64,000 nt of DNA. Source: a bacterium (GTDB lineage: Bacteria > Vulcanimicrobiota > JABDET01). Positions 4,368 through 55,316 of this stretch are shown piece after piece (the first letter of the stretch is position 1; every line of letters begins with the position of its first letter). The DNA is taken from the NCBI GenBank assembly GCA_021800275.1, contig JAJYZB010000001.1, forward strand, positions 392,624 to 456,623, given 5' to 3'. The notes under the pieces are model-generated. The model was given only the letters and a program-made list of their open reading frames with translations, had not been told where the DNA came from and did not search any database. Both the position numbers and the translations under genes were made by a program.

Positions 4368-4387
4368 AAGAGCGGCTAAGATCAATC

Positions 4388-6535: not shown

Positions 6536-6570
6536 AGGGGGACTATTATTCAAATCGAATTCCAACAGGC

Positions 6571-7530: not shown

Positions 7531-7934
7531 AAAGAAAACTAAAAATTTTAGTTTCTAAAATTGGTTTAGATGGTCATGATCGAGGAGCAAAAGTTGTTGC
7601 TCGCTCTTTGAGAGACGCTGGATTTGAAGTCATTTATCTTGGAATTCATCAAACTCCTGAAATGGTTGTCAATGCCGCTGTCCAAGAAGATGTGGATGTG
7701 ATCGGACTATCTCATCTTTCAGGGGCTCATAAAACACTTTTTCCCCGAACTCTTCAATTATTAAAAGAAAAAGGAAGAGAAGACATCCTTGTCATGGGAG
7801 GAGGAATTATTCCCGAGGAAGACAAAAGCGAACTGCTCAAGCTGGGGATTGTTAAGTTGTTTGGTCCAGGAACATTAACCCAGGATATTATCTCTTATTT
7901 AAAAGAATTGGAAAAAGAAAAATATCTGACATGA
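7527..7934 (+). CDS. Stand-alone cobalamin (B12)-binding domain protein (methylmalonyl-CoA mutase small/C-terminal domain-like)
   Basis: ILVSKIGLDGHDRGAKVVA is the DxHxxG B12-binding motif. The start overlaps the meaB stop, and the stop overlaps the next start (ATGA), so the genes are coupled. Confidence 0.8.
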   Translation: MKRKLKILVSKIGLDGHDRGAKVVARSLRDAGFEVIYLGIHQTPEMVVNAAVQEDVDVIGLSHLSGAHKTLFPRTLQLLKEKGREDILVMGGGIIPEEDKSELLKLGIVKLFGPGTLTQDIISYLKELEKEKYLT

Positions 7935-9112: not shown

Positions 9113-9117
9113 AATAA

Positions 9118-27286: not shown

Positions 27287-28441
27287 TCATGCTGGCACCA
27301 GCCTTCCAGATGTCTTGAGCACCTCTCGCGCAATCACCAGTTTTTGAATTTCCGATGTTCCTTCGCCAATTTCTCCTAATTTAGCGTCTCGAAAATAACG
27401 CTCAACAGGAAGATCATTTGTTAATGCTGAGCAGCCAATGATTTTTAATGCGGCATCACACACTTCAACTGCAAGAGTCGAAGCAAAATACTTAGCCATC
27501 GAAGCTTCTTTAATATAAAACTGCCCTGTGTCTTTAACCCGGCAGGCTTCCTGCGCCAATAAAAGAGCAGCTTCCAATTTTGTAGCCGCTTCAGCTATCA
27601 TTCCTGCTTCCCATTCATGTTCATCCATCAGGCCGCTGTCAACTTCATTTTTTTTTGCCCAATCCAGCATCTGCTCAAAAGCTGCTTCAGCAATCCCTAA
27701 TGCCCAACCGGCAATTCCCAGGCGGCCGGCGTCCAGGGTCTGCAGAAAAACTCGGAATCCATCACCCTCTAGCCCTAAAAGATTCTCTTTGGGAACCTGA
27801 CAGCCATCTAAAATTAAACCCGATGTGTCAGATGCCCTAAGCCCTAATTTCTCTTCTTTTTTTGCAATCATCAACCCAGGATAGTTCCTCTCTAAAATAA
27901 ATGCTGAAATCCCCTTTTTCCCTTTTTCTCTACTCGTTAAAGCTGAGACGACAAAAGTGCTTGCATAACTAGCAGATGTGGTAAAAACTTTTCTTCCATT
28001 TAAAAGATATGACCCGTTTACACTAACAGCACTTGTCCGAGAACTTGCGGCATCAGAGCCGCTGGAAGGTTCTGTTAACCCAAAAGCTCCTAACATCTCC
28101 CCCCGAACAAGAGGTATCAAATAGTGTTTTTTCTGCTCTTCTGTCCCAGCAAAATAAATGGGATTTGTGCCGAGCAGGTGAGCTCCAATGGAAAGTCCAA
28201 GAGATGCCCAAACTTTGCTGATCTCTTTGACCGCTAAAATGAAAGAAAACGAGTCCGCATTCTGTCCCCCGTACTTTTCGGGGAAACCTATTCCTAAAAT
28301 TCCTAACTCCCCCAACTTTTTCATAAAAAAAAGCGGAAACTCTCCCTGTTTTTCCATTTCATTTACTTTAGGCTTAACTTCGCTTTCTGCGAACTGTTTC
28401 GCCAAATTCTGCCAATAGTTCTGCTGTTTCGTTAATACCAT
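27287..28441 (-). CDS. Acyl-CoA dehydrogenase (second, tandem paralog)
   Basis: YGGQNADSFSFILAVKEIS...GSDAAS... carries the same fold motifs. It is a tandem duplicate arrangement. Confidence 0.85.
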   Translation of the reverse strand: MVLTKQQNYWQNLAKQFAESEVKPKVNEMEKQGEFPLFFMKKLGELGILGIGFPEKYGGQNADSFSFILAVKEISKVWASLGLSIGAHLLGTNPIYFAGTEEQKKHYLIPLVRGEMLGAFGLTEPSSGSDAASSRTSAVSVNGSYLLNGRKVFTTSASYASTFVVSALTSREKGKKGISAFILERNYPGLMIAKKEEKLGLRASDTSGLILDGCQVPKENLLGLEGDGFRVFLQTLDAGRLGIAGWALGIAEAAFEQMLDWAKKNEVDSGLMDEHEWEAGMIAEAATKLEAALLLAQEACRVKDTGQFYIKEASMAKYFASTLAVEVCDAALKIIGCSALTNDLPVERYFRDAKLGEIGEGTSEIQKLVIAREVLKTSGRLVPA

Positions 28442-28484: not shown

Positions 28485-30809
28485 TTATCTCATCCGCTTC
28501 AATCCCTGCAAAAGATGGTCTGCTTCTCGCAGATCTTCTTTTCCCTCAAGATCAGGAGAAAATCTAATTTGCTCATAAATTTGAATGATCTTCATCACTC
28601 TTTCTTTCATCTCTTTTTCTTCAATTTTTTCAATTAATTCTAACGGGGTTTCAGAAATTGTTCTCTTATACCCCCTTCTAGCTAGGAACCGCTCCAATTT
28701 CCGATAAAAAACTCGAACTTTTTTTCTGGAAATATCTGAAGGCTTCACAGATGATTTTTTGAATCGTTTCCAGGGGGTGAAATTCTTCCAATGAAACTTC
28801 AACTTTTGAGCGGCAAAAAATAAATACAACAAAATTCCAGCAGCAAAAACAGATCCAGCAAATTCAATCCAATTGTCCACCTGTTCCAGATCCCTCCTGG
28901 AAACTAATGCCTTTACAAGGCTTTTAAAATACTTTAAAACCGTTCCAATTCCAATAAAAACTCCTCGTTTCTGATACGTCGGCATCAGAGAAAATGCAGG
29001 AGAAGAATCAAATGGAATCCATCCAATATCTGGAAAATACACCTCATCCCAGGCATGGGCATCTTTTTCTCTGACCACATATTCCATGGTAAATGGATTA
29101 TAAGATCCTGTCGCATACCCGGTCACCAACCTTGTCGGAATTCCAACACATCGCGCTAAAACAGCAAAAGCTGAGGCGAACTGCTCACAGTATCCTTTCT
29201 TTAAATGAAATAAAAATTGAGACACCGCATCTTCATCTGGCGCTGGAGGAGGAATATCGAGCGTATAAGGAAATTGATGTAAATAATTAAGTATCGCCAT
29301 AATTTTCCCAAACATAGTCCGATGATTTTCAGTAATTTTCTCTGCTAATCTCCTGACTTTATTGGGGAGTTCTTGGGGGAGCTGCAAATAATATTTTTGA
29401 AGATAATAATACCTCAAATAAGTTGATTTTTTAAGTTCTGACATTTGTCTTCCTATTTTCTGAGCCTCTAAACTTCTCTTAGAAGGGATGATAGAGAAAA
29501 GAACCGCTTTTTGTGAAGACTTTATCCGCAAAAACCGCCTGGAAAAATCTATATACATTTTATGCAGATGAACATATCGCAGATCAGGAAGGTATCCAGG
29601 GTTTGCGTTTTTCAAGAGCTGAATCAAGTGAGTTGGCACACGGCTGACCACTGTGTATTCAGTTCCAGGAGAGAGATAAAAAGGCGCAGTCACAGTGTTT
29701 TCAGAGTTTCGATACAGGGTCGAGCTTGGAAAATAAATAGTCGCTGGTTCATAAATAGAAAAAATTAAATTGGGAAGTGAAGCCGTAATATAATAAGTCT
29801 GAATGATTTTTCTTGAATCAGGGTATCCACCCCTTGAATACGCAAGGGTAACTGAATCCGCAAAAAGATTCAGCTGCTCAGCTTTTTGGCGAGTAATGGT
29901 CCATCCATCTCCTGTGTATTTATCAAAAGCCATTCCTCTCCAATAGCCCGGCTCCTGAGATTTAACTTTCATCACGATTTTATTGGAGAGTTTTCCTCTC
30001 AGACTTAAATCTAAATAAGGATTAAATCCAAAATAAGAGTTTGGATTAAATTTGCCATAATCTCTTTTTAATGTAAATAAAGAAGACTGAGATCCTGAGG
30101 CTACCGGATAATCAGGATTAGCTATTTTTCCGTGAAACAAAGAAAAATTTGGCAAATGTATAGAAATTGGAGTAAATTTTAAAGAATAACCTTGAATTCT
30201 TGGGAAAAACAAGAACAAAAACAGACTGACTCCACCCATTAGAATTGAGAAGAAAGCTGTTGAGCGCAGAAAAAGGCTGACAAGCTTTTGAAACTCAAGG
30301 CTTTTAAAATTCAAAACCTGACTGGAAGCATCCAGATAAGTAATAACAAATGACACAATCACAATAAAAATAGCATAAAGGATTAAAAAAAAGCCAAAAC
30401 TCAAGTCAACACTGAAAACGGCAGCTCCTGTCATTAAAACAAATGAAACTAACAGCGAATAAAGTAAATCTTTCCGTGCTGGAGTATCAAAACTGTGGAG
30501 CATTAAAAGCCTGATCAGCAAGTTTGAAAGTGGAACTCGAGGATCGTAAGGTGAAGTGATAATTTGATAAATTCCATGGAATCCTATCCACAACATAATG
30601 ACACCTAAAATTATCCTTAACAAGATAGTCTTTTTATACCGAAAAACCCAACTTATCCATGAGCCTACCAGCACTCCTGAATAAGCTTCAAAGGTTAATC
30701 TTAAAGGCCAGTACTCTTCTCGTAGCAAGGCTGTCAGAGAAACCAGAACCACCAGAACAACGACAATCCTAAGCAGAACTGAATTTTCTGGAGACCTCTT
30801 CATTATCAA
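28485..30809 (-). CDS. Transglutaminase-like membrane protein (DUF3488 N-terminal TM region, TGase core, DUF4129-like C-terminus)
   Basis: GYCEQFASAFAVLARCVGIPTRLVTGY (Cys) and DAHAWDEVYFPDIGWIPFD (His/Asp) form the TGase triad. About six N-terminal TM helices. Confidence 0.8.
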   Translation of the reverse strand: MIMKRSPENSVLLRIVVVLVVLVSLTALLREEYWPLRLTFEAYSGVLVGSWISWVFRYKKTILLRIILGVIMLWIGFHGIYQIITSPYDPRVPLSNLLIRLLMLHSFDTPARKDLLYSLLVSFVLMTGAAVFSVDLSFGFFLILYAIFIVIVSFVITYLDASSQVLNFKSLEFQKLVSLFLRSTAFFSILMGGVSLFLFLFFPRIQGYSLKFTPISIHLPNFSLFHGKIANPDYPVASGSQSSLFTLKRDYGKFNPNSYFGFNPYLDLSLRGKLSNKIVMKVKSQEPGYWRGMAFDKYTGDGWTITRQKAEQLNLFADSVTLAYSRGGYPDSRKIIQTYYITASLPNLIFSIYEPATIYFPSSTLYRNSENTVTAPFYLSPGTEYTVVSRVPTHLIQLLKNANPGYLPDLRYVHLHKMYIDFSRRFLRIKSSQKAVLFSIIPSKRSLEAQKIGRQMSELKKSTYLRYYYLQKYYLQLPQELPNKVRRLAEKITENHRTMFGKIMAILNYLHQFPYTLDIPPPAPDEDAVSQFLFHLKKGYCEQFASAFAVLARCVGIPTRLVTGYATGSYNPFTMEYVVREKDAHAWDEVYFPDIGWIPFDSSPAFSLMPTYQKRGVFIGIGTVLKYFKSLVKALVSRRDLEQVDNWIEFAGSVFAAGILLYLFFAAQKLKFHWKNFTPWKRFKKSSVKPSDISRKKVRVFYRKLERFLARRGYKRTISETPLELIEKIEEKEMKERVMKIIQIYEQIRFSPDLEGKEDLREADHLLQGLKRMR

Positions 30810-31915
30810 TCACCAAAAACGGTGTAAACTCCTTTTTCTCCTAACCAGGAAGACAAACGGGTTGAGGCTTCATTTTTCTTTCCTTCTGAAAATACAAAAG
30901 TAATTCTTGCTCCCTCTTCTAAAAGCCAGTTCACAAACTTCCATGACTCAGATAAAAACTCATTTGGAATGCCCGTAAAAAAAAGTAAATCCTTGCATAT
31001 ATGTAAAAAAGAAAGATCTTTTTTCACCTGCTCGCTTAAAGAAAGAGAACTGTCAGGTTGAATCTCCGCCAGGATTTCGAGGTTCCCCTGCAGACTTTTC
31101 AGTTCCGCCGTTCCTTTCTGAAAAATCCGAACCCAGTGCCCTAATTTAAAAATTTCTTGAACTGCATACGATGCGTGTTTCACACTGGTTTCAAAAGATG
31201 ATCCAGCCCACCTTTGGTCTTGATCCAAGTACAGAGTATAAAGAAAAGGATGAACCTTCATCATTTCTCTAATCATCAGCTTTCCTGTTTTCGCTGAAGA
31301 GGACCAGTGAACACTTCTCAAAGAGTCTCCTGGCAAATATTCTCGAATACCTGCAAACTCTTCCCCATCCCCTCTGCCGGAAACAACCCCTTTTTCAGAA
31401 ATCAAAGGAACAGGAGAAGAAGTTTGAGTTGGAAGAGTAAATGACTTTGAAGAAGGATAAATAATAATTCTTCCCTTGCATGCAATTTTTCTTTTAAATT
31501 CAAAAAATCCGCCAGGCCCAATGCTTTTCAACACAAAATCTCTTAAAGAGTAAACTCCTCTCACCCCTGCTTTTGTTTTATAGGTCATTTCCACAACATT
31601 TTTCCTGGGAAGAAAGGGCAGAAAAAGCGATATCCCTAAAACTTTTTCCTCAATAGATAAAAAATATTTATTAACCCTGGAGAAATTTTCTGCCCGAATT
31701 AAAACATCTAAAATTTCCCCTTCAAAAACAGGCTGAGCGTAAACTTCCATGTTGATTCTGCCCAGAAGAGCGATTCTAGGGAAAACCCAGGCCGTAAAAA
31801 GAAAACTCAGCAGCATGAAATCTAAAACAAAGAGCCAGCCAACTTGAATATTTATGGCAATGAACAAAAGAGAAAAAGCCATGATAAAAAGAACCCACTT
31901 TGCGTATTTCGGCAT
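30806..31915 (-). CDS. DUF58 protein (vWA-like; usually the partner of MoxR ATPase and TGase-like proteins)
   Basis: REYLPGDSLRSVHWSSSAKTGKLMIREM is the DUF58 signature (R-Y-GD-R-I-W). Two N-terminal TM helices. Confidence 0.75.
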   Translation of the reverse strand: MPKYAKWVLFIMAFSLLFIAINIQVGWLFVLDFMLLSFLFTAWVFPRIALLGRINMEVYAQPVFEGEILDVLIRAENFSRVNKYFLSIEEKVLGISLFLPFLPRKNVVEMTYKTKAGVRGVYSLRDFVLKSIGPGGFFEFKRKIACKGRIIIYPSSKSFTLPTQTSSPVPLISEKGVVSGRGDGEEFAGIREYLPGDSLRSVHWSSSAKTGKLMIREMMKVHPFLYTLYLDQDQRWAGSSFETSVKHASYAVQEIFKLGHWVRIFQKGTAELKSLQGNLEILAEIQPDSSLSLSEQVKKDLSFLHICKDLLFFTGIPNEFLSESWKFVNWLLEEGARITFVFSEGKKNEASTRLSSWLGEKGVYTVFGD

Positions 31916-31916
31916 A

Positions 31917-34121
31917 TCAAACTCCTATTTTTTCAATATGGGTTACTCTTCGAATTTGAACAACTTCCTTAATCTGGGATAGTATTTTTATTAACTGCTG
32001 CAATTTGTGAACGTTTTGAATTTCGAGAATCAATCTGATGTTTGCCTGTTCCTGTTTAGCTGATGCCTGACATGTTTTAGCGACAATATTTTCAGCATAA
32101 ATTTTATCCATTACTTCACCTAATAGACCTGGTTTATCCCAGGCTTCAATAACTATTTCAGACTCGTAAACTCCACCGGTAAATTCAGGATTCCAGGCAG
32201 CTTCTAACACCCTTTCTGGAGCATCTTTCTGCAAAACTTTCATGTTGGGACAGGTTTCCTGATGAACGCTTACTCCTTTTCCAATTGTGACATAGCCCAA
32301 TATTCGATCTCCGGGAAGAGGATTGCAGCATTTTGAGAATCGAACCAGCAAGTTGTCTAAGCCCTTAATCAAAACTGCCTGATTTGAGCCAGAACCCTTC
32401 AATTTTCCCTTGCGCGATGGGACAGGCTTCTCTGCTAAACCCGAATATTCCTTAATTTTTGACGCAAGGGATGGGAGGTTGATTTCCCCGTATCCCAGAG
32501 CTTCTAAGAAATCCTCCACTTTCGTAAAATTAGAGGTCTCTGCCAGCTGCTGCACAAAGCCCTCTTTAGTTTTGCCAGGAAATAAATCTTCCTGTCGAGA
32601 CTTAGTTAGAAACTTCTCTAAAACATCTTTTCCTCGGAGTATATTTTCTTCTCTTTTCTCTTTTTTTAACCAGATCCGAATTTTATGTTTGGCGCTTGAA
32701 GTTTTACAAATTTTGAGCCAATCCCAGTTTGGACCAGGTGAAGTTTTACTGGTGATTATCTCAATGATATCCCCATTCTGCAAATGATAGTCTATAGGGA
32801 CCATTCTTCCATTAACTTTTGCTCCAATGCACTGATTGCCAACACCGGTGTGGATCCTATAAGCGAAATCAATAGGAGTCGAACCTGAAGGTAGATCGAA
32901 CACATCCCCTTTAGGAGTGAAAACGAAAACTTGAGTTTCAAGAAAATCTATTTTAAAAGCTTTTACATACTCTCTAGCGCTCTTAACTTCTTCCTGCCAT
33001 TCCTTCAAATACTTAGTCCAGGGAACCGTCATTTTCTCCACATTTTTATCTTTTTGCACCTGTTTATACTGCCAGTGAGCAGCAACCCCATATTCTGCTA
33101 CTCGATGCATTTCCCACGTTCGAATTTGAATTTCAAGGGGTTCGCCTCCAGGTCCATAAACCGTTGTATGCAAAGACTGATATTGATTGCTTTTGGGCTT
33201 GGCAATATAATCTTTTATTCGATCATGAATGGGAAGCCAGAGTCCATGCACAATTCCTAAAACAGCATAACAGTCCTCCACATTATTCACTAGAACTCTT
33301 ACCGCTGTTAAATCATGAATATCCCCAAAACTTTTCCCTTTTCTGACCATTTTCTGCCAGATGCTGTATAAATGTTTCGGTCTTCCTTCAATATGGGCTT
33401 CAATGCCTGACTGTTCCAACCGCTTGTTTAGAGTTTTAACAACGGTCTGAATGTCTTTTTCCCTTTCCGCTCTTCTCTGAGAAACCTGTTTTATGAGTTC
33501 CTGGTAGTGTTCTGATTCCAGATAACTGAAAGCCAGATCTTCTAATTCAGCTTTTATCTGCCAGATGCCAAGTCTGTGCGCCAGAGGGGTAAAAATTTCC
33601 AGAGTTTCTTTAGCAATGAACCTTTGTCTTTCAGGAGATAAATTACACAATGTCCTTAAATTGTGCAGACGGTCCGCCAGTTTTACCAGAATGACCCGAA
33701 TGTCTTTTGCCATTGCAACAAAAATGCGCCTTAAATTTTCAAAATGTTCTTCTTCTTTAGCAAGTCTGGATTCAGGTTTACTATCTTCTTGTCGAATCGT
33801 AATGGAAGTTAATTTAGTCACTCCATCTACAATCAACGCCACCTCAGAGCCAAACTCTTTTTCAATTTCGCGAATCGGAATATTACAATCTTCTACCACG
33901 TCATGAAGAAGAGCAGCGCAAACAGTAGGAGTATCTAACTCTAAATCTGACACGATTTTTGCCGTTTCAATTGGATGGATAATAAAAGGCTCGCCTGACA
34001 TTCGCTTTTGCCCCTCATGCGCTCTAAACGCATATTCGTAAGCCTTTCGAATAACAAGAGCATCTTCTGATGCATGTTCCTTTTTGATTTCTGATAGAAA
34101 CTCGTCAATTGTAGGAATCAC
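31917..34121 (-). CDS. rel: Bifunctional (p)ppGpp synthetase/hydrolase Rel/SpoT
   Basis: The HD domain (HPIETA...LLHDVVED), a synthetase domain with the RxKD motif (RIKDYIAKPKSNQYQSLHTTV), TGS and C-terminal ACT domains are all present. Confidence 0.9.
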   Translation of the reverse strand: MIPTIDEFLSEIKKEHASEDALVIRKAYEYAFRAHEGQKRMSGEPFIIHPIETAKIVSDLELDTPTVCAALLHDVVEDCNIPIREIEKEFGSEVALIVDGVTKLTSITIRQEDSKPESRLAKEEEHFENLRRIFVAMAKDIRVILVKLADRLHNLRTLCNLSPERQRFIAKETLEIFTPLAHRLGIWQIKAELEDLAFSYLESEHYQELIKQVSQRRAEREKDIQTVVKTLNKRLEQSGIEAHIEGRPKHLYSIWQKMVRKGKSFGDIHDLTAVRVLVNNVEDCYAVLGIVHGLWLPIHDRIKDYIAKPKSNQYQSLHTTVYGPGGEPLEIQIRTWEMHRVAEYGVAAHWQYKQVQKDKNVEKMTVPWTKYLKEWQEEVKSAREYVKAFKIDFLETQVFVFTPKGDVFDLPSGSTPIDFAYRIHTGVGNQCIGAKVNGRMVPIDYHLQNGDIIEIITSKTSPGPNWDWLKICKTSSAKHKIRIWLKKEKREENILRGKDVLEKFLTKSRQEDLFPGKTKEGFVQQLAETSNFTKVEDFLEALGYGEINLPSLASKIKEYSGLAEKPVPSRKGKLKGSGSNQAVLIKGLDNLLVRFSKCCNPLPGDRILGYVTIGKGVSVHQETCPNMKVLQKDAPERVLEAAWNPEFTGGVYESEIVIEAWDKPGLLGEVMDKIYAENIVAKTCQASAKQEQANIRLILEIQNVHKLQQLIKILSQIKEVVQIRRVTHIEKIGV

Positions 34122-34125
34122 GACT

Positions 34126-35805
34126 TTAAAATCCCAGGTTCTGTATCTGCTCTTCTATCTGTTCAGGGGAAAGAGTCTGATAACGGGTTGGGAGAAGGTC
34201 TCGGAAAGAACATTCTTTGACACTGATTAACTCCATAAACTTGACCATTGGATCCCGATTTAAAATAAACTGCCCTATCCCTTTTTCTAGATCTTTCTCT
34301 TCAATAGAAGAGCGGTCTTCATCATCAGCATAGCGAGCTGACTGCAGCAAAATAGCCTCAATTTCAGCCCCAGAATATCCTATCAATTTTTTAGAAAACT
34401 TCTCCAGAAAATCGCCTGATAAAGATATCCCATTTTTATGAATCAAAGCTTTTAACAGGGAAAAAACTTCTTCTTTTGTGTCAGGATAAAAAAATGGAAT
34501 TTTTAAGTCAAATCTTCCTGGCCTTTTGAAGGCTTCATCCAGCAAATCAGGGCGATTACACATTCCGATGAAAATAATTTTTCCTCGATGAGTGGTATCC
34601 CCCATAAAGGATATAAGCATAGCAAAAATCCGATTGGAAGTGCCTGAATCCCCTTCTCCACCTCTTTTCCCAAGAGATTGGTCAATTTCATCCACGATCA
34701 CAATAACAGGAGCTAATGCTTTAATAATATTTAAAATTTTTTCCAAATTGGATTCTGTAGAACCAACCCATTTTTCTCTAAAATTTTTCAGTTTCAAGCA
34801 ATTTAAACCGCATTCTTTAGTAAAAGCTTCTCCTAAAAAAGTTTTTCCTGTTCCTGGAGGCCCATCAAACAAAATTCCCATCGGGACCCAACGAGTTCTC
34901 CCTTGTCTAACTGCTCTGGCAGTCTTCAGTAAAATCTTTTTTATTGCTTCGCATCCTCCCACGATTTCAAATCCATGCTGAGGCTCTACAAACTCGACCA
35001 GATTCGAACATTCATTTTCGATAATCGCTTTTTTGCTTTCCCTTACCAGATCATAAGTGATTTTTCCGCCCAGATAAGCTGCTTGACTAAAAATATCCTC
35101 AAGATGAACTCTATTCAATCCTGCTGTTAGAGCAGCTAAAAGTTCTGGGCTAATTTCCTCCAAACTAAATGAGCCTTTTTTCATTCTCCAGGTAATATAA
35201 TCCAATCTTTCCGCCTCTCCAGGGAAAGGAATTTCCAAAATATTCATTTTACTGGTAACATTCCGAAGGGATGGATGCACATCACTCATATTCTCTGTCA
35301 CCAGGATGACAACGCTGTCCGCATTCAAAAGCTGAGGGCTTGAAGCCCAGCGCCTGAGAGTGACTAAATTATTTCGATCTTCTCCCGACATATAAGAAAC
35401 TTCCCCTGAAGGAACAATGGTTTCCACATAATCAATCACAATTCCACAGGAATGAATCGAAAACACAACCTCAAGCAGCGGAAAAACTTTAGAAGGCTCA
35501 TGTGGAAGAGAATTTTGATAGGGATTTAAGGGGCCCAACGCAATGTTTAAAGCCCTTATGAATTTATCTTTCATGTCCGGCTGAGCAAAAGTCAATCCCT
35601 CTGAGCGATTGTAAAAAATCAAAATATCCTTTTTTCCCAGCAAAAACCCTAAAAACTTCCGAAGGGGAAGATATTCCTGCTGATAGGGAACCAGATCATT
35701 AATATTAGAATGCAGCAGAAACTGACTGGCAATACCTGCCAGATACTGCTCCCTGAGTTTCTGAGCCCAAAAGGGAAGAGTTGGAGACTGCACTGGTAAA
35801 TTCAT
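34126..35805 (-). CDS. Classic-clade AAA+ ATPase with an uncharacterised, roughly 290 aa N-terminal domain
   Basis: GILFDGPPGTGKTFLGEAF is Walker A. VIVIVDEIDQ is Walker B. RPGRFD is the second-region-of-homology Arg. It ends 4 bp upstream of rel. Confidence 0.75.
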   Translation of the reverse strand: MNLPVQSPTLPFWAQKLREQYLAGIASQFLLHSNINDLVPYQQEYLPLRKFLGFLLGKKDILIFYNRSEGLTFAQPDMKDKFIRALNIALGPLNPYQNSLPHEPSKVFPLLEVVFSIHSCGIVIDYVETIVPSGEVSYMSGEDRNNLVTLRRWASSPQLLNADSVVILVTENMSDVHPSLRNVTSKMNILEIPFPGEAERLDYITWRMKKGSFSLEEISPELLAALTAGLNRVHLEDIFSQAAYLGGKITYDLVRESKKAIIENECSNLVEFVEPQHGFEIVGGCEAIKKILLKTARAVRQGRTRWVPMGILFDGPPGTGKTFLGEAFTKECGLNCLKLKNFREKWVGSTESNLEKILNIIKALAPVIVIVDEIDQSLGKRGGEGDSGTSNRIFAMLISFMGDTTHRGKIIFIGMCNRPDLLDEAFKRPGRFDLKIPFFYPDTKEEVFSLLKALIHKNGISLSGDFLEKFSKKLIGYSGAEIEAILLQSARYADDEDRSSIEEKDLEKGIGQFILNRDPMVKFMELISVKECSFRDLLPTRYQTLSPEQIEEQIQNLGF

Positions 35806-35959
35806 TCTGAATTGTTTTTCTCATTAAACCTATGATTTACCTCTATTAAGGGTTAGATTAAAGCCAGGATGACAGCAGGCATCTATCCCATCAGGAATTG
35901 ACATTCCTATGAATGTCATCTTCCTGCGAGATGATGATTAAAGAGACGTTCGCGTCTCG

Positions 35960-35991
35960 AAAAAAAAGAAGCCAGGAAATTTTCTGGCTTC
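35960..35991 (-). terminator. Rho-independent terminator after the minus-strand repeat-protein gene
   Basis: On the minus strand the hairpin GAAGCCAG-N8-CTGGCTTC (35968-35991) is followed by T8 (35960-35967). It lies about 25 nt downstream of the stop at 36016. Confidence 0.45.
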
Positions 35992-36015
35992 TGACTGCAG
36001 CAAATTAAATTAACT

Positions 36016-36612
36016 TTATCTTAAATGCTTGGCTCTTTCAGTTAAAACCTCAGCCTGTCCTTTGGAAAGTTTTCCTTTTTTTTCAGCCTGCTGAATTCTA
36101 GAGAACAATTCTTGATGAGCTCTGACTGAACTCAGTTTGTGGTTTCTCACTTCCTGCCACAGTTGATGCACCTGCTGATAATACCAGCGGTTAGCGGGGC
36201 TAACGGTGTGAAGCTCTCGATTCATCGGGACTGCTTTCTTCAGCATCGTCATTCCCTTTTTGCGACTCATTGGCACAGCTTTGGTATAACTCTTTTTCAT
36301 CCAGACCCCTTCATGAGGATCTCCAGCTGCCACTGCTCTATGAGTCAGAGCCATTCCCTGAGTCTTAGTAAGCTTACCCTGCATTTCAGCTTTTTTAATG
36401 CCTGAAAGCAGTTCTTGATGCGCCTGTTTCCAGGTCAGTTTATGCATCTTGACTGCAGTAGAGAGATCTCGGACTTCTGTGTAATACCAGCGATTCGCTG
36501 GACTCATCACTTTTGCTGAGCGGCTGAACTTTTTAGGCATAACCACAGCGGCAAACCCAAATGAGTTAAGAACAAAGAAGATAACAAAGAGATATCCTAG
36601 TAGTTTCTTCAT
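36016..36612 (-). CDS. Secreted protein made of two divergent tandem repeats of about 75 aa
   Basis: Signal peptide. The block SPANRWYY..V..L...V..HKL....AHQEL.S.I..AE..GKL.K.Q...LT.RA occurs twice. Confidence 0.5.
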   Translation of the reverse strand: MKKLLGYLFVIFFVLNSFGFAAVVMPKKFSRSAKVMSPANRWYYTEVRDLSTAVKMHKLTWKQAHQELLSGIKKAEMQGKLTKTQGMALTHRAVAAGDPHEGVWMKKSYTKAVPMSRKKGMTMLKKAVPMNRELHTVSPANRWYYQQVHQLWQEVRNHKLSSVRAHQELFSRIQQAEKKGKLSKGQAEVLTERAKHLR

Positions 36613-36750: not shown

Positions 36751-37503
36751 TTATGAATTTAAATTCGACAAGATTCCTCCAGTGCCTCGCGTGATCTCTT
36801 CTGTGGCTTCCACTTCTGCCAGAAGAGTATTCAAGCTTTTTGAAACATCCATGCCAGCTTTTGTTTCAAGAGTTTGATCCAGAACTAACTGCAGCGTATT
36901 CTCAATCTCTGATAGTTTTATCTCCATCTTTTTAGCTAGAGCTTGAATATTCAGCAAATGTTCCTGGCGTTTTTTTAAAATTTCGACATTCTTTTGGATG
37001 CCCTGTTTTTCGTCAATTTGCTCTGTCTTTTTTTCTTCATTTAAAAGGTCTTGAATTTCTTTCTGTACTTTTTGAATTTCGGGGTCAGGAGCATATTCAT
37101 GGTATTGATCCTTTAAGGCTAAAAATTTTAAATAAGACAAAAAAACTTCATTAACCTTTTCGGATGAATCCAAAGAACCGGATTTCTGAATTTGTATCCT
37201 GATTTTATCTAAATTTTGACATCTCATTAAACTATCGGGCTTAAGATTTTTGCTCAGTTCCTGCAGTTTTAAATTATATTTCTGTTCCTTTACCTGGCCT
37301 AACTCCTGCGCAGCCTGCTTCTTTATAAAAGGCAGCCCTGGAGCTATTCCAAGATAAACTGCTTCTGCGCTGAAAGCAAACAAAAGAGGAGCCAGGTGTC
37401 CTACTAATCCTGACAAAAGAACAGCCACTGCTAAACCTCCGTAATTCAGCGGTTCTAGAAAAGCTTTCCCTACAAGACTTAACCAGGAAGGCTTTTCATT
37501 CAT
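36751..37503 (-). CDS. Hypothetical membrane-anchored coiled-coil protein downstream of pspA
   Basis: Two N-terminal TM helices, then a K/E-rich coiled coil. Same strand as PspA and 22 bp downstream of it. Confidence 0.4.
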   Translation of the reverse strand: MNEKPSWLSLVGKAFLEPLNYGGLAVAVLLSGLVGHLAPLLFAFSAEAVYLGIAPGLPFIKKQAAQELGQVKEQKYNLKLQELSKNLKPDSLMRCQNLDKIRIQIQKSGSLDSSEKVNEVFLSYLKFLALKDQYHEYAPDPEIQKVQKEIQDLLNEEKKTEQIDEKQGIQKNVEILKKRQEHLLNIQALAKKMEIKLSEIENTLQLVLDQTLETKAGMDVSKSLNTLLAEVEATEEITRGTGGILSNLNS

Positions 37504-37524: not shown

Positions 37525-38277
37525 CTATGCCCCAGGAGGTTTTTCTTCAATTTTCATTGGCTCCATGGTTTTTTGGGGCTGAGAGCCAGTCTGGTCAATG
37601 GCAGGGGTTGGGGGAAGCAGTCCCATCTGTTTTTTATATTCTAAAAGCTGAGCTTGAACTTCAACATTAGAACTGGACTGTTCAAGAGTAGCAAGCTGTC
37701 CCTGAGCGCTGGAGGTTCCCAAATCTATCATGGCTTCTGCCCGTGAAGACCGTTCTCTGATTTTCTCTTTCATTCTATCCAGAGTGTCTGAATCGCCGGA
37801 CGCTGAAAAACTCTGCATGGTCTGAGCCACTCGTTCCTGCATTTTTGCTCTGCGATTTTCAGCGATTAACTGCATTCTTTCATTCGATTTCTGCTGAAAA
37901 TTCAGCTGCGCCTGCTGAAGCTGCTGTTTCACTAAAGTTGACTGCTGTCGAGCTTTCTCTAATTGGGCTTTCAAGCTGGTCAAATTTGTCTGTTCGGAAT
38001 TTTTTTGAGCAATTAACGAAGCGGCCAGATCATCTCTTCCTGCCTGAACTGCAGTTCTAACCTGATTATCCAGTTCAACCAGCTTGTTTTGCGATGTTTC
38101 TACACCATGTTGAAGTTCTTTTTCATAAGCCACTACACCCACAGCATCATTCTGCATTTTTCCTATTTGCGCCCTCTGATCTTCAATCCACTGATTTAAA
38201 ATCAACTCTGGATCTTCAGCTTTCCCAATAGCCCATCCAAACCAAGAACGGATGACTCGCATCAATCTCTTAAACAT
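37525..38277 (-). CDS. pspA: PspA/IM30 (phage-shock protein A / Vipp1) family protein
   Basis: MFKRLMRVIRSWFGWAIGKAEDPELILNQWIEDQRAQIGKMQ is the canonical PspA N-terminus. The start is probably the internal ATG 38275-38277. Confidence 0.8.
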   Translation of the reverse strand: MFKRLMRVIRSWFGWAIGKAEDPELILNQWIEDQRAQIGKMQNDAVGVVAYEKELQHGVETSQNKLVELDNQVRTAVQAGRDDLAASLIAQKNSEQTNLTSLKAQLEKARQQSTLVKQQLQQAQLNFQQKSNERMQLIAENRRAKMQERVAQTMQSFSASGDSDTLDRMKEKIRERSSRAEAMIDLGTSSAQGQLATLEQSSSNVEVQAQLLEYKKQMGLLPPTPAIDQTGSQPQKTMEPMKIEEKPPGA

Positions 38278-38456
38278 TTCATTCCTCCTTAGGGACCACC
38301 TCAAAACTTACCAGAAGATAAGTTTCTTGAAAACACTGTCAGCATCCTTCACTTTTTAAACAGCCCGATTAAAAAAGAGATCATTTCTAGCTTTTTTCTT
38401 CTTATGATAAAAGACTTCGAGCAGGAATCTCTTTTCTAAAATTTGAATTTTGAGCC

Positions 38457-41214: not shown

Positions 41215-42192
41215 TCAAACATGTAATGCAGCTTTCATGATAAGCCATGCAGCTGGCTGAAATAGCAGTTGAGCAACCAATGTCCCAACAATTGAACCCA
41301 GGTTTAAAAACACAATAACTGCTTTTACGTCCTCCTCTGTTTTTATTCCATGAATTGCCTGATCGGTAATTAAAGCCGCCTTAGGATCCACAAAAATTGT
41401 AAACAAAATCGTTGAAACTCCAGTAATAATCCCTGAAAGCCCCACTGCAGTCAAAGCTCTTGCGCTTTCAACAGCGCCAGCATAATACGCTGCAAGAACT
41501 CCAATAGATAAAAAAGCTTGCACAAAAATATTCAAAATCAAAAAATCTTTCGGAAGCCTGGATAGACTTTTCAAGGTTACTTGCATAAAACCAGGGGGTC
41601 TAAAAATATCAGGATGAAAAAGCCAGGATAAGAATGTAAAAAGAACATAAAAAAGAATTGACACACAAATTCCAAACCCAAAAAATTCTAAACCTCTAAC
41701 AAAATTTAAATGGCCAGCAAAACGATGAAACGAGAAAAAAGAAATTCCGAATCCTAAAGCCAAACTAACCATAAAAATGTTATAAAACTTCTGATAGCTC
41801 CCTTTTCTTGGTTTTAAAAGCCCAAAAAAAATCTTAGGGACAGAATTCTCCCTTTCAAAAACCAGAATTCCTTTTCTAAAAACCTCAACAAACGTAGGAA
41901 TGAGAAGAAAAGCAAAAATACAGCCAAGGGTTGAAGCGCTTAAAATAATCCTGTACTGCACTTCCAGAAGATGAATGTTTCTTGTTCTTCTTGCAATATC
42001 TGCTAATCTTCCAATTTCAGGGAGGAGAAGCATATTGGCTATTCGGGAGAAAAAAACATAGGTATTAAAAAGAGTAGTGGCTGTAGCAATTCTCTTCGTG
42101 TAAACCCCAGCCAGTCTTGCAGCTCCAAAAGACACCAGAAGCAGGTTAATCGCGGCAAACAAAAAAAATCCAATCACGACCAGCCAGTTCAT
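41215..42192 (-). CDS. Polytopic membrane protein with internal two-fold repeat, possibly Amj-like (DUF2837) lipid II flippase
   Basis: Eight to ten TM helices. No other motif. The family assignment is tentative. Confidence 0.4.
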   Translation of the reverse strand: MNWLVVIGFFLFAAINLLLVSFGAARLAGVYTKRIATATTLFNTYVFFSRIANMLLLPEIGRLADIARRTRNIHLLEVQYRIILSASTLGCIFAFLLIPTFVEVFRKGILVFERENSVPKIFFGLLKPRKGSYQKFYNIFMVSLALGFGISFFSFHRFAGHLNFVRGLEFFGFGICVSILFYVLFTFLSWLFHPDIFRPPGFMQVTLKSLSRLPKDFLILNIFVQAFLSIGVLAAYYAGAVESARALTAVGLSGIITGVSTILFTIFVDPKAALITDQAIHGIKTEEDVKAVIVFLNLGSIVGTLVAQLLFQPAAWLIMKAALHV

Positions 42193-44566: not shown

Positions 44567-45646
44567 TCAATTTTTATATTGTTTTCTAGCTGTCAGCACT
44601 TGATCCATGCTGTTTAAAAACAACTCAGTTAACTCAGGATCAAAATTAACCCCTTTTAATTGTTTAATTTCAGCCAGGGCTTTTTCCACAGGCCAGGGCT
44701 CTTTATAAGGGCGTTTCGAGGTTAAGGCATCGAAAACATCTGCAATCGAGCATATTCGACTGACAAAAGGAATATCTTCTCCTTTTAAACCTGAAGGATA
44801 ACCTGTTCCATCCCATTTTTCATGATGGGTAAGAGCAATCAGTTCAGCTAACTGCAGCAGTTTCGATCTGCTGCCCGACAAAATTCTAGCCCCTAAAACA
44901 GTATGAGACTTCACAATTTCCCATTCTTCAGGGGTCAATTTTCCTGGCTTCAGCAGCACCTGATCCGGAACTTTAATCTTTCCAATATCATGCATTTGAG
45001 CCGCATAAAATAAAAGTTTTACTTCTTCCTCTTTCATGCCGCTGGTTTTTCCTAAAATCGCAGCATACTGACTCATCCTTTTGATATGCATTCCTGTGTC
45101 GTCATCTCGATATTCAGCCACTAAACTTAATCTCTGGATCGTCTCTAACTGGGTTTCTTGAATTTCAGCAGTCCGCTCTTGAACCTTTTCCTCTAAAATT
45201 TTATTTTGATCCAGCACCTGCTTGTATAAAAGCCAGTATTCCAGCATATTCCGAATCCGAGAAAGCAGCTCGATTTGATCAAAGGGCTTGTTTAAAAAAT
45301 CTTTTGCCCCTTCCTGAAGAGCCCTTTTCCTGGTTTCTATAGTAGAATCCCCTGTTAAAACAAGAATCGGAGGATGAGCATAATTTTCGATAATTTTCAA
45401 CTGAGCCATGATTTGATACCCATCCAATCCAGGCATATTCAAGTCTAACAGAATCAAATCCGGTGAATGTTTTTTGTAAAACCCTAAAGCTTCTAAAGGT
45501 TCAGAGGTAAAGAGGAGGTTAGAATACCCGTGAACTCTCAGAATTCCATCCAGGAGATCCAGATTTTCCCTCTGGTCATCAATCATTAAAATTTTTGCCT
45601 TAAAAATTTCTGAGTCCGAAATCATTTTTATCCACTGCCCGTTCAA
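44567..45646 (-). CDS. Response regulator with HD-GYP output domain (c-di-GMP phosphodiesterase, RpfG-like)
   Basis: REC domain LMIDDQ...DLILLDLNMPGLDG with the phospho-acceptor Asp. The HD-GYP domain is intact: HD in AAQMHDIGK and HHEKWDGTGYP. An alternative start is M8 at 45625. Confidence 0.85.
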   Translation of the reverse strand: MNGQWIKMISDSEIFKAKILMIDDQRENLDLLDGILRVHGYSNLLFTSEPLEALGFYKKHSPDLILLDLNMPGLDGYQIMAQLKIIENYAHPPILVLTGDSTIETRKRALQEGAKDFLNKPFDQIELLSRIRNMLEYWLLYKQVLDQNKILEEKVQERTAEIQETQLETIQRLSLVAEYRDDDTGMHIKRMSQYAAILGKTSGMKEEEVKLLFYAAQMHDIGKIKVPDQVLLKPGKLTPEEWEIVKSHTVLGARILSGSRSKLLQLAELIALTHHEKWDGTGYPSGLKGEDIPFVSRICSIADVFDALTSKRPYKEPWPVEKALAEIKQLKGVNFDPELTELFLNSMDQVLTARKQYKN

Positions 45647-46897: not shown

Positions 46898-48148
46898 GTG
46901 AGAGGAAATTCTTTCCTCATGCCCGCAGATAAAATATTAGCGCAAGAAAAATCGCACCATGAGCCAGAGGTTCACAAGCTTAGGTTTGTTAAAATCCAGG
47001 GTTACCGCCCTTTTAAAGATTTTACTGCAGAGCTCGATTTACTCGAAGTATTCGTTGGAGCAAATGGAACAGGAAAATCCAGCTTTTTCGAATTCCTTAA
47101 ATTTATCAGAGATGGTGTAAAAACCGAAGAAATCCCTGCCGAAATTATTGCAGGTTCAATCGGGCAACAAATTTTTCATAAACCAGGTCCGGATAAATTC
47201 TTCTGGAACCTGGAGATGAATATGGAGGGCGAGAAAACGGCTATACAGTACCAGGGAGAACTAATAGGACCAGTCGGTCAAACCCGAGTGATTTATGAGA
47301 CTGTTCAAACAGCAAAACCACTTGGACAACAATACAGCAAACCTCTCATATTGATGGATGTGAGAAATGGCAGTGGTAAAATTTTTGATCCCTTATTGAA
47401 AAAATTTAAATCCCAAGAAATCATATTGAAACGCACTAATCAACTTGCCCTCAGCCTTATGACCAACCCTGCGTTAAAAACCTTGTATGATTTAAGGGAA
47501 TTCATCCTTGAATGGAAGTTTTACAACTCGTTTAATATTGATAATTATAAAATTCGCCAGGCTGTGCCGACAGAGCAAGAACCAATCCTGAGAGAAGACG
47601 CGGGAAACCTGAGTTCAGTGCTGCATTACCTTATGACTGAACACCCTCCTATTTTTGATGAACTACAGCAGTATCTGCGTCAAGTTATACCAGGTTTCAA
47701 AAAACTCATGGTGAAAGCTCGAGGCGCTCCAGGACACGTCATTGCTTTCTGGCAGGAAGAAGGCGGAGAGGACCTCAGTCTCGCCGATTTATCAAACGGA
47801 ACTCTTCACCTTATATGCTGGACAGCCCTTTGTGTGAATCCTAAAATCCCGACGCTTATCTGTATAGATGAACCTGATCAAGGAGTGCATCCTAGAACAC
47901 TTCCTTTTCTCGCAGGTTTATTCAAAAAAGCAAGTGAGCGGACTCAAATATTTCTTGCCACTCATGCCTCCTATTTTTTGATCCAATTCGATCTGGAGAA
48001 TTTAGCAGTGTTAGTAAAAGAAAATGGTGAAACGAAGTTCGTTAAGCCTGCTAACTCTGCAATACTCAAAGAAAATCTAAAAGAATTTGGCTCTGAAGAG
48101 ATAGAGATCATGCACAAAAATGATGAACTGGAAAATTTCTCAGAATGA
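46898..48148 (+). CDS. ABC/SMC-like ATPase (AAA_21/AAA_15 type) of a candidate two-gene defence cassette
   Basis: VFVGANGTGKSS is Walker A. LSNGTLHLICW is an ABC-signature/Q-loop-like segment. TLICIDEPDQGVHP is Walker B with the D-loop. FLATHASYF is the H-loop. An alternative start is 46919, where the RBS GAGAGGA sits in a GAGGAAA..TTTCCTC palindrome. Confidence 0.75.
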   Translation: MRGNSFLMPADKILAQEKSHHEPEVHKLRFVKIQGYRPFKDFTAELDLLEVFVGANGTGKSSFFEFLKFIRDGVKTEEIPAEIIAGSIGQQIFHKPGPDKFFWNLEMNMEGEKTAIQYQGELIGPVGQTRVIYETVQTAKPLGQQYSKPLILMDVRNGSGKIFDPLLKKFKSQEIILKRTNQLALSLMTNPALKTLYDLREFILEWKFYNSFNIDNYKIRQAVPTEQEPILREDAGNLSSVLHYLMTEHPPIFDELQQYLRQVIPGFKKLMVKARGAPGHVIAFWQEEGGEDLSLADLSNGTLHLICWTALCVNPKIPTLICIDEPDQGVHPRTLPFLAGLFKKASERTQIFLATHASYFLIQFDLENLAVLVKENGETKFVKPANSAILKENLKEFGSEEIEIMHKNDELENFSE

Positions 48149-48798
48149 TAGTAGTTCATATTTATGTTGAAGGCGCTTCAGATAAATATGCTATGGAGAA
48201 CCTCCTCAAACCGTTAATCGAGCGCAAACAAAAAGAAAACGTTTACATTCGTTTTCACGACTCTCCTGAAGGAGATAAAAAGAAATCAGTATTACTCAAG
48301 ATTCCACACAAAGCCGTAAACATTCTCAGAAACAACAGCTCAGCAATTGTCATCGCTCTACCTGATTTATATCCCAAAAATAAAGGATTTAATCATGAAA
48401 CCGTAACAGAACTAGAACAAGGCATTTGCAAAGTTTTTTCCAATAAACTGAAGACTGCAGGGATTCATTATGATGAGAAAATCAGAGAGCGATTCAAGGT
48501 ATTCTGTTTCAAATACGAGTTAGAATCTCTTATTCTGGCATCCAAAGAATCACTCGAAAAAAGATTAGGAGTAACCTCTCTTAAAATTGAGTGGCGCCTG
48601 CCTGTTGAGGACCAAAACCATGAGAACCCACCCAAAAAAATCGTAGAGAAACTATTTAAACTTCAAAATATGCGTTATACAGAAACAATCGATGCCCCAA
48701 TCATTCTGGGGAGCAGTCATTATCAAGAATTAACAAAGTCCTGTAGGCAATGCTTTAAACCTTTTATTGATTATCTTGAGCAGATCAGTCAAGCTTAA
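48145..48798 (+). CDS. DUF4276-like small protein with a TOPRIM-like N-terminus (predicted nuclease partner of the upstream ATPase)
   Basis: MIVVHIYVEGASDKYAMENLL matches the hhhVEGxSD opening of OLD/RloB/AriB-type TOPRIM domains. Acidic residues follow: IALPDLYP and others. ATGA start/stop overlap with the ATPase. The family call is from memory and was not searched. Confidence 0.55.
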   Translation: MIVVHIYVEGASDKYAMENLLKPLIERKQKENVYIRFHDSPEGDKKKSVLLKIPHKAVNILRNNSSAIVIALPDLYPKNKGFNHETVTELEQGICKVFSNKLKTAGIHYDEKIRERFKVFCFKYELESLILASKESLEKRLGVTSLKIEWRLPVEDQNHENPPKKIVEKLFKLQNMRYTETIDAPIILGSSHYQELTKSCRQCFKPFIDYLEQISQA

Positions 48799-55000: not shown

Positions 55001-55316
55001 AAGAAATCTCCTGTCTAGATTCAAGCCACTCTCTCAGAGTTTCCCCTTCCAAATACTCCATGACCATATAATAAATCTCTCCATCTTCACCAATATCATA
55101 AATAGGGAGAATATGAGGATGCTCTAACTTTGCCGCCACTTTAGCTTCTCTTAAAAATCTCCGAAGAGCTTCTTTGTTTTTAAGAAGCTTGGGAGGAAGA
55201 ATTTTAATGGCGACCATTCTCTCAAGGCTCGGATCTTCAGCCTTATAGACGATCCCCATGCCACCTCTGCCTACTTCTTCCAGAATCTTATAACGGCCAA
55301 TAAAAACAGGATTCAT
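52002..55316 (-). CDS. Hanks-type Ser/Thr protein kinase fused to a zinc ribbon and about 20 TPR repeats
   Basis: GRGGMGIVYKA...VAIK...HRDVKPEN...DFG...APE gives the kinase subdomains. CPRCGTLGDSFQKYCLECG is a zinc ribbon. Long TPR array. Confidence 0.85.
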   Translation of the reverse strand: MNPVFIGRYKILEEVGRGGMGIVYKAEDPSLERMVAIKILPPKLLKNKEALRRFLREAKVAAKLEHPHILPIYDIGEDGEIYYMVMEYLEGETLREWLESRQEISLEGSLNLFKQAAEALHYAHQKRVVHRDVKPENIMVLRDGTVKVMDFGIAVMEDRHSVTQPGAVMGTIAYLSPEQAEGKQADLRSDIYSLGIVLFELLTGSLPFDARTPSEMLSHHLSTLPPLPSKLNSFVPEVLDQVVLKTLAKNPADRYQTVGDLLQDLEKGSSSLRSNAGFLGPAVQESSTSETKAPPPGFVDKTAVLEELKNLLSKDKDKQEGFSRDSFIKFNPVVDRLQKQQDLLSSQTTSSVESGDEVVSEKGKEIAQVPCPRCGTLGDSFQKYCLECGSLLASAFISDFSDDINQGIALYQQGAYEQALHVFQKFLKNHSAAAEVHYYSGLCFLNLQHYTEAKSELLKALKIEPDNGHAWESLGDIEQKLNHDLDALDAYKKAAPLIARISVWQKLEKLQEKEGDFESASQSLEQALELDPKNVSMLRSLARVLIRLSRLEEANMVLKKVLDLNPNDSEALTLLGEIYERTNRFSQAIKLYEKAFEIDPENTSALSRLGDLNFKQDKRDEAIVHLKKAVKVNPENPGIHSKLAEVYLQENQEDLAFDHLVKAASLNPNDPVVLKDLGKLYLKQNSLDQAFLQFKRAVSLNPSDAEAHASLAQIHFWREESGLAVQEYKTALQYDPYNPEIHESLGLVYYMQENLDNAIEEMLRAVSYDPNNTDYRKALGVMYETRGKLDLARKEYQKVVELKPGDALAQGLLGRVYAEQNLLNLAIYQYQKSLELEPRTQLVHNLLGKAFLKLGKLDEAILSFQKAIDSASQPISGRAKQIVGKNYYYLGKTYMEKALLKEAETALEKASQYYPSYADIFHLLGKIKAEQGLKAEAKRHMERAARLAKREETEIFADFAEILLESGDQGGAIQAILNAIHSAPQQAKYHAFLGDLFFTKGELESALSSYETALKLAKQKKDVYHWKLANVLMHRKEYNEAAGHYKAARDLTPGNWHYSWDLAKAYEMLGKRQDALEQLERLKQSQSDPETLNLIDQEIKRLQL

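Follow-up and report, generated by a model that had tools for sequence, protein, structure and literature searches.

Does a long (p)ppGpp synthetase/hydrolase belong to a membrane transglutaminase (TGase) operon, and to what does the AAA ATPase gene in front of it belong? Both questions are raised by four minus-strand genes in a 64,000-nucleotide stretch of bacterial DNA (contig JAJYZB010000001.1, positions 392,624–456,623; hereafter the window). The four open reading frames (ORFs) fall within nt 28485–35805 of the window and are listed in the direction of transcription.

nt 34126–35805, minus strand: AAA ATPase gene, 559 aa
nt 31917–34121, minus strand: rel, a long bifunctional RelA/SpoT homologue (RSH), first of the rel-DUF58-tgpA triad, 734 aa
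nt 30806–31915, minus strand: DUF58-like gene, product with an N-terminal transmembrane (TM) hairpin, second of the triad, 369 aa
nt 28485–30809, minus strand: TgpA-like membrane TGase gene, third of the triad, 774 aa

The ORF coordinates confirm the junctions given in the initial annotation. The AAA gene and rel are separated by 4 nt, rel and the DUF58 gene by 1 nt, and the DUF58 gene overlaps tgpA by 4 nt. A Shine-Dalgarno-like AGGAG stands 8 nt 5′ of the DUF58 ATG, within the 3′ end of rel. With such spacing the cluster is operon-like, and co-transcription of the four genes is likely, as had been proposed. The initial annotation further took the AAA as a substitute for MoxR, with Rel inserted between it and DUF58. 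This view is not supported, since the AAA gene adjoins rel in one genus only. We read the cluster as two separately conserved modules, rel-DUF58-tgpA and an AAA gene with its PspA side, which lie adjacent only in this genus. We give this reading a probability of about 0.75.

The triad is present in all seven sampled lineages of a small uncultured clade, with Rel 58–88% identical, so the tie of Rel to DUF58 and TgpA noted earlier stands as a gene linkage. All DUF58 relatives of at least 34% identity are directly preceded by Rel, and TgpA comes next wherever the contig reaches. Identities to the window proteins are as follows.

L001/L013 (sister species): Rel 88%, DUF58 65%, TgpA 63–67%
L009/L010 (and L101, same genus): Rel 71%, DUF58 50%, TgpA 41%
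L011: Rel 72%, DUF58 45%, TgpA 42%
L012: Rel 66.5%, DUF58 35%, TgpA 42%
L093: Rel 65%, DUF58 41%, TgpA 44%
L131: Rel 58%, DUF58 34%, TgpA 41%

The junctions remain tight throughout. From Rel to DUF58 they range from an 8-nt overlap to a 23-nt gap across the lineages, and from DUF58 to TgpA from a 4-nt overlap to a 3-nt gap among loci with a whole tgpA ORF (L093, whose tgpA reading frame is interrupted, is left out of the latter range). The search from the side of Rel gives the same picture. Rel homologues at least 58% identical whose surroundings can be read (5 of 6) are all triad members. A 54%-identical homologue lies in a recJ-rel arrangement without the triad, and a 55%-identical one lies at a contig edge.

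The genes flanking the triad vary. The gene 5′ of rel is the AAA gene in the window's genus, in L009 an HD-GYP-like HD_5 gene sharing 4 nt with the start of rel, and in L093 and L131 rpmA (ribosomal protein L27). In the last two loci (L093 nt 340–720; L131 nt 7669–8000) rpmA is followed by a terminator hairpin, a promoter-like site and then rel; the L131 site matches at 11 of 12 positions (TTTACA-18-TATAAT). The rpmA-rel order may be the ancestral context. On the 3′ side of tgpA there are acyl-CoA dehydrogenase, T2SSE, opposite-strand AsnB and other opposite-strand genes. Thus synteny with relatives, proposed as a check on the whole arrangement, upholds rel-DUF58-tgpA in seven of seven lineages and the position of the AAA gene in the window and its sister species only.

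The DUF58 proteins linked to Rel are monophyletic (neighbour-joining, bootstrap 100/100). Among themselves they share 31–65% identity, and no outsider exceeds 31%. An exhaustive profile search of 1.84 billion representatives returned four clusters (at 50% identity) of the Rel-linked type with E ≤1e-86. The scores then drop to 1e-48, where ordinary DUF58 proteins begin (17,239 hits).

A scan of a genome collection with the DUF58 profile gave 79 distant loci (23–31% identity) from Actinomycetota, Planctomycetota, Omnitrophota, Lentisphaerota, Armatimonadota and others. A MoxR (AAA_3) ORF is found in 71 of these, mostly directly upstream, and none has a Rel within 8 kb. Distant metagenome loci behave alike, with MoxR in about 33 of 36 and Rel within 7 kb in none. 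Combined (n = 115), about 90% of the distant DUF58 loci carry MoxR and none carries Rel nearby. TgpA homologues were present in 62 of 92 loci examined for them, these distant genome loci included. The statement that DUF58 and TgpA normally stand behind MoxR is thereby borne out. Since the distant DUF58 loci mostly have MoxR upstream and none has Rel nearby, Rel occupies the MoxR slot in the triad. No MoxR is found in any of the loci of the seven triad lineages, for which 7–64 kb of sequence per genome was covered. A tblastn search of the 64-kb window with six MoxR proteins found nothing, and no second RSH is present in the window.

Two further arrangements were seen outside the clade. DUF58-TgpA pairs without MoxR occur in Armatimonadota and 'Ca. 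Thermosaccharophagus' (L045, L048, L055, L058), preceded by an unannotated ORF of 136–252 aa. Because such pairs occur there too, MoxR appears to have been lost or replaced more than once. In Lentisphaerota/Victivallales, the DUF58-TgpA loci have an FHA-MoxR fusion of 436 aa upstream (L046 nt 4526–5836; also L061, L064, L069 and L086), which suggests phospho-threonine-dependent control of the system in these bacteria.

The AAA gene keeps other company. The genes upstream of it, and the sequence between, are the following.

nt 37525–38304, minus strand: PspA/IM30 gene (ESCRT-III superfamily; PF04012, E=7.6e-34), head of the upstream module
nt 36751–37503, minus strand: hyp250, a protein with an N-terminal TM (peak at residues 24–42) and a long helical, coiled-coil-like part
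nt 36016–36612, minus strand: hyp198, a signal-peptide protein (hydrophobic N-terminus at residues 7–25), last gene of the PspA unit
nt 35958–35992, minus strand: intrinsic terminator (9-bp stem and T8) at the end of the PspA unit, between it and the AAA gene
nt 35806–35957, minus strand: intergenic region upstream of the AAA gene, presumed promoter and 5′ untranslated region of the AAA-rel-DUF58-tgpA transcript

In the sister species L001/L013 (AAA 92%, Rel 88% identical) the whole region is collinear, reading TyrRS, then PspA-hyp250-hyp198-AAA-Rel-DUF58-TgpA and two acyl-CoA dehydrogenases. In the next relative, L003/L004 (AAA 76% identical), TyrRS and PspA-hyp260-hyp119-AAA are retained upstream. 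On the 3′ side of its AAA gene there are a 109-aa ORF and an opposite-strand TonB-dependent receptor gene, with no Rel, DUF58 or TgpA. PspA is conserved beside a hyp250 homologue and the AAA in both L001/L013 and L003/L004. The metagenome of the next relative (JGI 3300054681) has the PspA-AAA module on one contig and the rel-DUF58-tgpA triad on another, there behind an HD-GYP-like gene, and the contig pair recurs in SRR35626478. Only the window and its sister species, which belong to one genus, have the AAA next to rel. More distant AAA homologues (L006–L008) never adjoin DUF58, TgpA or Rel; one of them, in a locus unrelated to the triad (L008), precedes rplU-rpmA-obg.

The most persistent neighbour of the AAA is hyp250. 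Its homologues stand upstream of the AAA in L001 (66%), L003 (40%) and L005 (29%), in the last 12 nt from an AAA that is 61% identical to that of the window. Hyp250 has no Pfam match, even at E up to 10, and its single-sequence AlphaFold2 (AF2) model is of low confidence (pLDDT 56). The idea that it is a divergent Snf7/PspA protein gained no support, the hhalign probability against PspA being 1.4%. Hyp198 contains two internal repeats of about 57 aa (SPANRWYY...HKL...AHQEL...GKL.K.Q) and matches no family. Its homologue in the sister species L001/L013 is 72% identical, and in L003 a shorter ORF of 119 aa takes its place.

The AAA protein itself consists of two modules.

nt 34126–34905, minus strand: residues 301–559, active classic-clade module with lid (PF00004, E=1.6e-33, and motifs)
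nt 34906–35805, minus strand: residues 1–300, predicted degenerate (inactive) AAA+ module without Walker A (AF2 and Foldseek)

The C-terminal module matches PF00004 at residues 311–438 and is followed by AAA_lid_3. It carries Walker A (GPPGTGKT), Walker B (VDE), a pore loop 1 (KWVG) and the second region of homology (RPGRFD), which places it in the classic clade, as first described. By sequence, the closest solved structures are the D2 domains of VAT, p97 and Cdc48 (E ~1e-61). The pore loop is intact, and therefore the protein is probably an unfoldase or disassemblase, as far as motifs can predict. MoxR proteins were recognized by AAA_3 with AAA_lid_2 in a single module of about 310–350 aa; true MoxR proteins from other loci score 193–220 bits on AAA_3. 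The window AAA gives no AAA_3 match (PF07726, MoxR family) and is not of that type. A generic COG label at JGI would make it at most a candidate Ycf46.

The N-terminal domain, described at first as unknown, is by its predicted fold a degenerate AAA module. Its AF2 model has a pLDDT of 91.7, and the top 50 Foldseek matches in the PDB are all classic AAA modules, among them proteasomal Rpt, p97 D1 and Pex1/6 (E ~1e-8, probability 1.0, about 280 aligned columns, 13–15% identity). The P-loop position reads FLLHSNINDLVP, and the domain thus lacks Walker A. The domain is conserved throughout the family (56 homologues). Judged from the model, the protein is a tandem of an inactive AAA and an active classic AAA. 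The synteny with PspA and hyp250, the AAA fold of the N-domain, a published architecture (see below), and adjacency to rel in one genus only assign the AAA to the PspA-side module. Most simply, it would be an unfoldase of the PspA system that came to lie before rel in one genus. It most likely acts on the PspA (ESCRT-III-like) system and not on DUF58/TgpA or Rel.

The Rel protein scores 790.8 bits on TIGR00691 (cutoff 499) and has the domains HD_4, RelA_SpoT, TGS, RIS and ACT. Both the hydrolase motif (HDVVED) and the synthetase motifs (GRPKH, RIKDY, EIQIRT) are present. By domains and motifs it is a long bifunctional RSH, with both activities predicted. A clade-specific domain or insertion was looked for in the Rel proteins and none was found; the architecture is the ordinary HD-Syn-TGS-RIS-ACT. 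Two Rel proteins of the clade, P0154 (L131 nt 8001–10019; 672 aa) and P0155 (668 aa), are without about 60 residues between TGS and the zinc finger (AH domain).

The DUF58-like protein scores 23.2 bits on PF01882, just under the gathering score of 23.4. Its signature, GIREYLPGDSLRSVHW, is invariant in its clade, and the general form is GxRxYxxGDxxRxIxW. More distant homologues of the protein carry PF01882, and the profile of the clade recovers those 17,239 DUF58-type proteins. Although just below the Pfam cut-off, the protein is, judged by homology, a member of the family. The TM hairpin would leave its soluble domain in the cytoplasm. Loss of the MIDAS motif was considered as a mark of the Rel-linked DUF58 and rejected, the nearest MoxR-linked DUF58 being also without DxSxS.

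TgpA of the window is composed of the multi-TM TgpA_N, Transglut_core and DUF4129, all above the Pfam cut-offs, and is thus of the TgpA type. The TGase core lies at about nt 29007–29351, followed by one further TM and DUF4129. Of the catalytic residues, C541 and H585 do not vary, and the clade also conserves the Asp of FDSSP. A basic stretch follows the last TM (residues 648–666). From this stretch and the TM profile, the DUF4129 C-terminus is predicted to be cytoplasmic and the TGase domain to lie outside, a topology resembling that of PA2873. The TgpA proteins of the window and of the sister species L013 have an insertion of about 50–70 aa before the TGase core (about nt 29310–29490, residues ~440–500), which is missing from the other triad TgpA proteins (L009, L011, L012, L131).

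A promoter region and a terminator had been said to bound the transcription unit upstream. The terminator is found, with a 9-bp stem at nt 35992–35967 containing five GC pairs and followed by T8. Equivalent hairpins with T-runs stand upstream of the AAA in L013 and L003. The promoter is less clear. A scan of nt 35806–35960 for a sigma-70-like promoter gave no match, and only a block at about nt 35814–35844, conserved with the sister species L013, marks this region. Sigma-70-like sites in the 27–37 kb part of the window are at chance level (19 found, 20.1 expected). An Rfam scan of the window returned only four tRNAs, with no leader or riboswitch near the cluster. At the other end, no terminator was found 3′ of tgpA in the window sequence, and the next gene is close.

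nt 27287–28441, minus strand: acyl-CoA dehydrogenase gene, 43 nt downstream of tgpA with no terminator between

With both genes on the minus strand and no terminator in the 43-nt interval, the transcript has no defined downstream end, and it may read through into the dehydrogenase gene in this genome. The acyl-CoA dehydrogenase gene follows TgpA only in the window and L013, and is outside the conserved unit.

Taken together, the following course is proposed. The ancestral operon would be moxR-DUF58-tgpA; in the present clade MoxR is absent from the sampled loci and rel would have come to stand at the operon head in its place. The resulting rel-DUF58-tgpA operon would be the defining mark of the clade, with close spacing and, for the most part, translational coupling between its genes. 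A long bifunctional (p)ppGpp synthetase/hydrolase would thus be made from the same message as a membrane pair, namely DUF58 with its TM hairpin and putative cytoplasmic domain, and TgpA with a predicted extracytoplasmic Cys-His-Asp TGase and a cytoplasmic DUF4129 tail. Co-transcription of the triad and this topology are predicted from gene spacing and protein sequence. The minimal mechanism would be co-expression of Rel with an envelope-maintenance module. In the window genome the promoter of the AAA gene probably drives rel-DUF58-tgpA as well.

Several points weigh against the reading of two modules, or against parts of it. The clade is narrow (Rel at least 58% identical), and part of the conservation could be inherited gene order and not selection. 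MoxR could be encoded elsewhere in the triad genomes. On the side of the AAA, the terminator lies between it and the PspA genes in three species (window, L013 and L003), and three AAA homologues (L006–L008; 46–52% identical) are alone in unrelated contexts without PspA or hyp250. The likeness of the AAA to the published PspA-linked family is one of architecture and, in part, of neighbourhood. In L009 (nt 4014–7794), rel has three genes upstream of it, after recN, a classic AAA of tandem type and 511 aa that differs from that of the window. Its N-terminus reads 'LIRSRYPLIYI', and it is 25% identical to the window AAA from residue 148 on. Its position may be due to chance or may reflect a loose, recurrent proximity of AAA and rel. 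Promoters inside the AAA gene or within rel may also exist.

Three other explanations have to be weighed. The one that survives best is that the linkage is neutral. Here rel landed before a MoxR-less DUF58-tgpA pair in the ancestor of the clade and the order was never broken, so that the genes share a transcript and nothing more. The clade is indeed small and fairly shallow (four clusters at 50% identity), and the MoxR-less pairs in Armatimonadota show that the pair exists elsewhere without its ATPase. However, both flanks of the triad were rearranged several times, with three upstream and at least four downstream neighbours, and the tight junctions stayed intact. The triad also held together while DUF58 fell to 34% and TgpA to 41% identity. 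We consider mere inheritance somewhat unlikely.

The second explanation is that Rel is the new cytoplasmic partner of the membrane pair. Either the complex would recruit or regulate Rel, so that the state of the envelope feeds into (p)ppGpp, or control would run the other way, from Rel or its product to the complex. Rel stands exactly in the MoxR slot of a monophyletic DUF58 clade and keeps tight junctions despite rearranged flanks. By the predicted topology, the soluble domain of DUF58 and the tail formed by DUF4129 would share the cytoplasm with Rel. Moreover, MoxR is dispensable in P. aeruginosa (PMC3507681). Against this, the Rel proteins have no domain specific to the clade, and two members even lack the AH region. 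Long RSH genes are commonly found in operons with unrelated genes, and in the literature searched no link of Rel to DUF58 or TgpA was found. We therefore regard a functional partnership of this kind as unlikely. Any physical or regulatory tie of Rel to the membrane pair is speculative and improbable on present evidence, and it is quite doubtful that Rel displaced MoxR in the strong sense, in which the periplasmic TGase would sense or modify the envelope and the condition of the latter would bear directly on (p)ppGpp synthesis or hydrolysis.

The third, that the classic AAA replaces MoxR in the DUF58/TgpA complex and that Rel was inserted and is physically tied to a four-protein machine, is very unlikely. 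In its favour, the four genes of the window and sister species stand almost end to end, the 64-kb window has no MoxR and L009 has its second, different AAA three genes upstream of rel. Against it, the AAA stands beside rel in one genus only, its 76%-identical orthologue lies away from rel with the PspA neighbours kept, other genes precede the triads of L009, L093 and L131, distant AAA homologues are never beside DUF58, TgpA or Rel, and the protein fits the PspA-linked architecture.

If the linkage within rel-DUF58-tgpA is functional, a long RSH enzyme would have gained a new partner system, and DUF58-TgpA, a widespread pair that is essential in P. aeruginosa, would have its first functional handle. 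If Rel did displace MoxR, the stringent response would have an input of a novel type. As the clade is rare and uncultured, only a modest direct impact is to be expected. The analysis also removes a misleading reading of the AAA as a MoxR surrogate, and its N-domain, going by the structure model, is a dead AAA module. The AAA would add to the cases in which bacteria are proposed to pair the ESCRT-III-like PspA with a classic AAA resembling Vps4.

Other genes of the window represent an ordinary chromosomal context.

nt 41215–42192, minus strand: Amj-type lipid II flippase
nt 44567–45646, minus strand: response regulator with REC and HD-GYP
nt 52002–55316, minus strand: Ser/Thr kinase of 1104 aa with a long TPR array

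In addition, at nt 46898–48798 on the plus strand an AAA_21 (AbiEii/OLD-like ATPase) gene overlaps a DUF4276 gene, which resembles anti-phage defence pairs.

Among known systems, the triad is closest to moxR-DUF58-tgpA. In P. aeruginosa, PA2875-PA2874-PA2873 is such an operon; it is co-transcribed, and tgpA is essential while moxR is dispensable (PMC3507681). The TGase domain of PA2873 (TgpA) lies outside the cytoplasm (PMC3507681). An AAA-DUF58-TGM core is also part of the bifidobacterial PFNA cluster (PMC12067865). The present locus shares with moxR-DUF58-tgpA the DUF58 gene followed, often with overlap, by a multi-TM TGase of TgpA_N, Transglut_core and DUF4129, and the window TgpA has the intact Cys-His-Asp triad in a TGase domain predicted to be extracytoplasmic. 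It differs in that the triad loci of the seven lineages have a long RSH gene and no MoxR (AAA_3) upstream of DUF58, and their DUF58 proteins form a clade of their own, at most 31% identical to those linked to MoxR.

The BatA-E or MoxR-vWA operons of the aerotolerance type also contain a DUF58 gene downstream of the ATPase gene. The window locus has no MoxR, no vWA proteins BatA/BatB and no TPR proteins BatC/E, and its ATPase is a classic-clade tandem AAA of another module.

Long RSH genes are common in operons with unrelated genes, such as recJ-apt-rel-dtd in Firmicutes and rpoZ-spoT-trmH-recG in E. coli. Like these, the triad contains an RSH of the usual HD-Synthetase-TGS-RIS-ACT build, with hydrolase as well as synthetase motifs and with operon partners of other function. 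It is unlike them in the identity of the partners, DUF58 and TgpA, which are not reported beside an RSH in the literature searched; this search turned up no paper in which DUF58 or TgpA is connected to RSH enzymes or to ppGpp.

The AAA gene finds its counterpart in the 'Inactive-Classical-AAA+Classical-AAA' proteins, which are repeatedly encoded next to PspA (Ravi et al. 2024, mSystems, PMC11237479; Text S2.2/Table S3), with the prototypes AEY64320.1 and CKH37208.1 and the neighbourhood of OGG56892.1 as examples. Membrane-anchored divergent Snf7 or other helical proteins sometimes accompany them (PMC11237479). The window AAA likewise has an N-terminal AAA fold without Walker A before an active C-terminal classic AAA, and shares one neighbourhood with PspA and a membrane-anchored helical protein. 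PspA and hyp250 are both beside the AAA in the window, L001/L013 and L003, hyp250 alone in L005, and neither in L006–L008. The differences are the terminator between the AAA and PspA genes and the solitary position of the distant homologues. The AAA/PspA part matches a pairing that has already been described. The arrangement rel-DUF58-tgpA represents a new form of a familiar operon and is restricted to one rare clade without cultured members.

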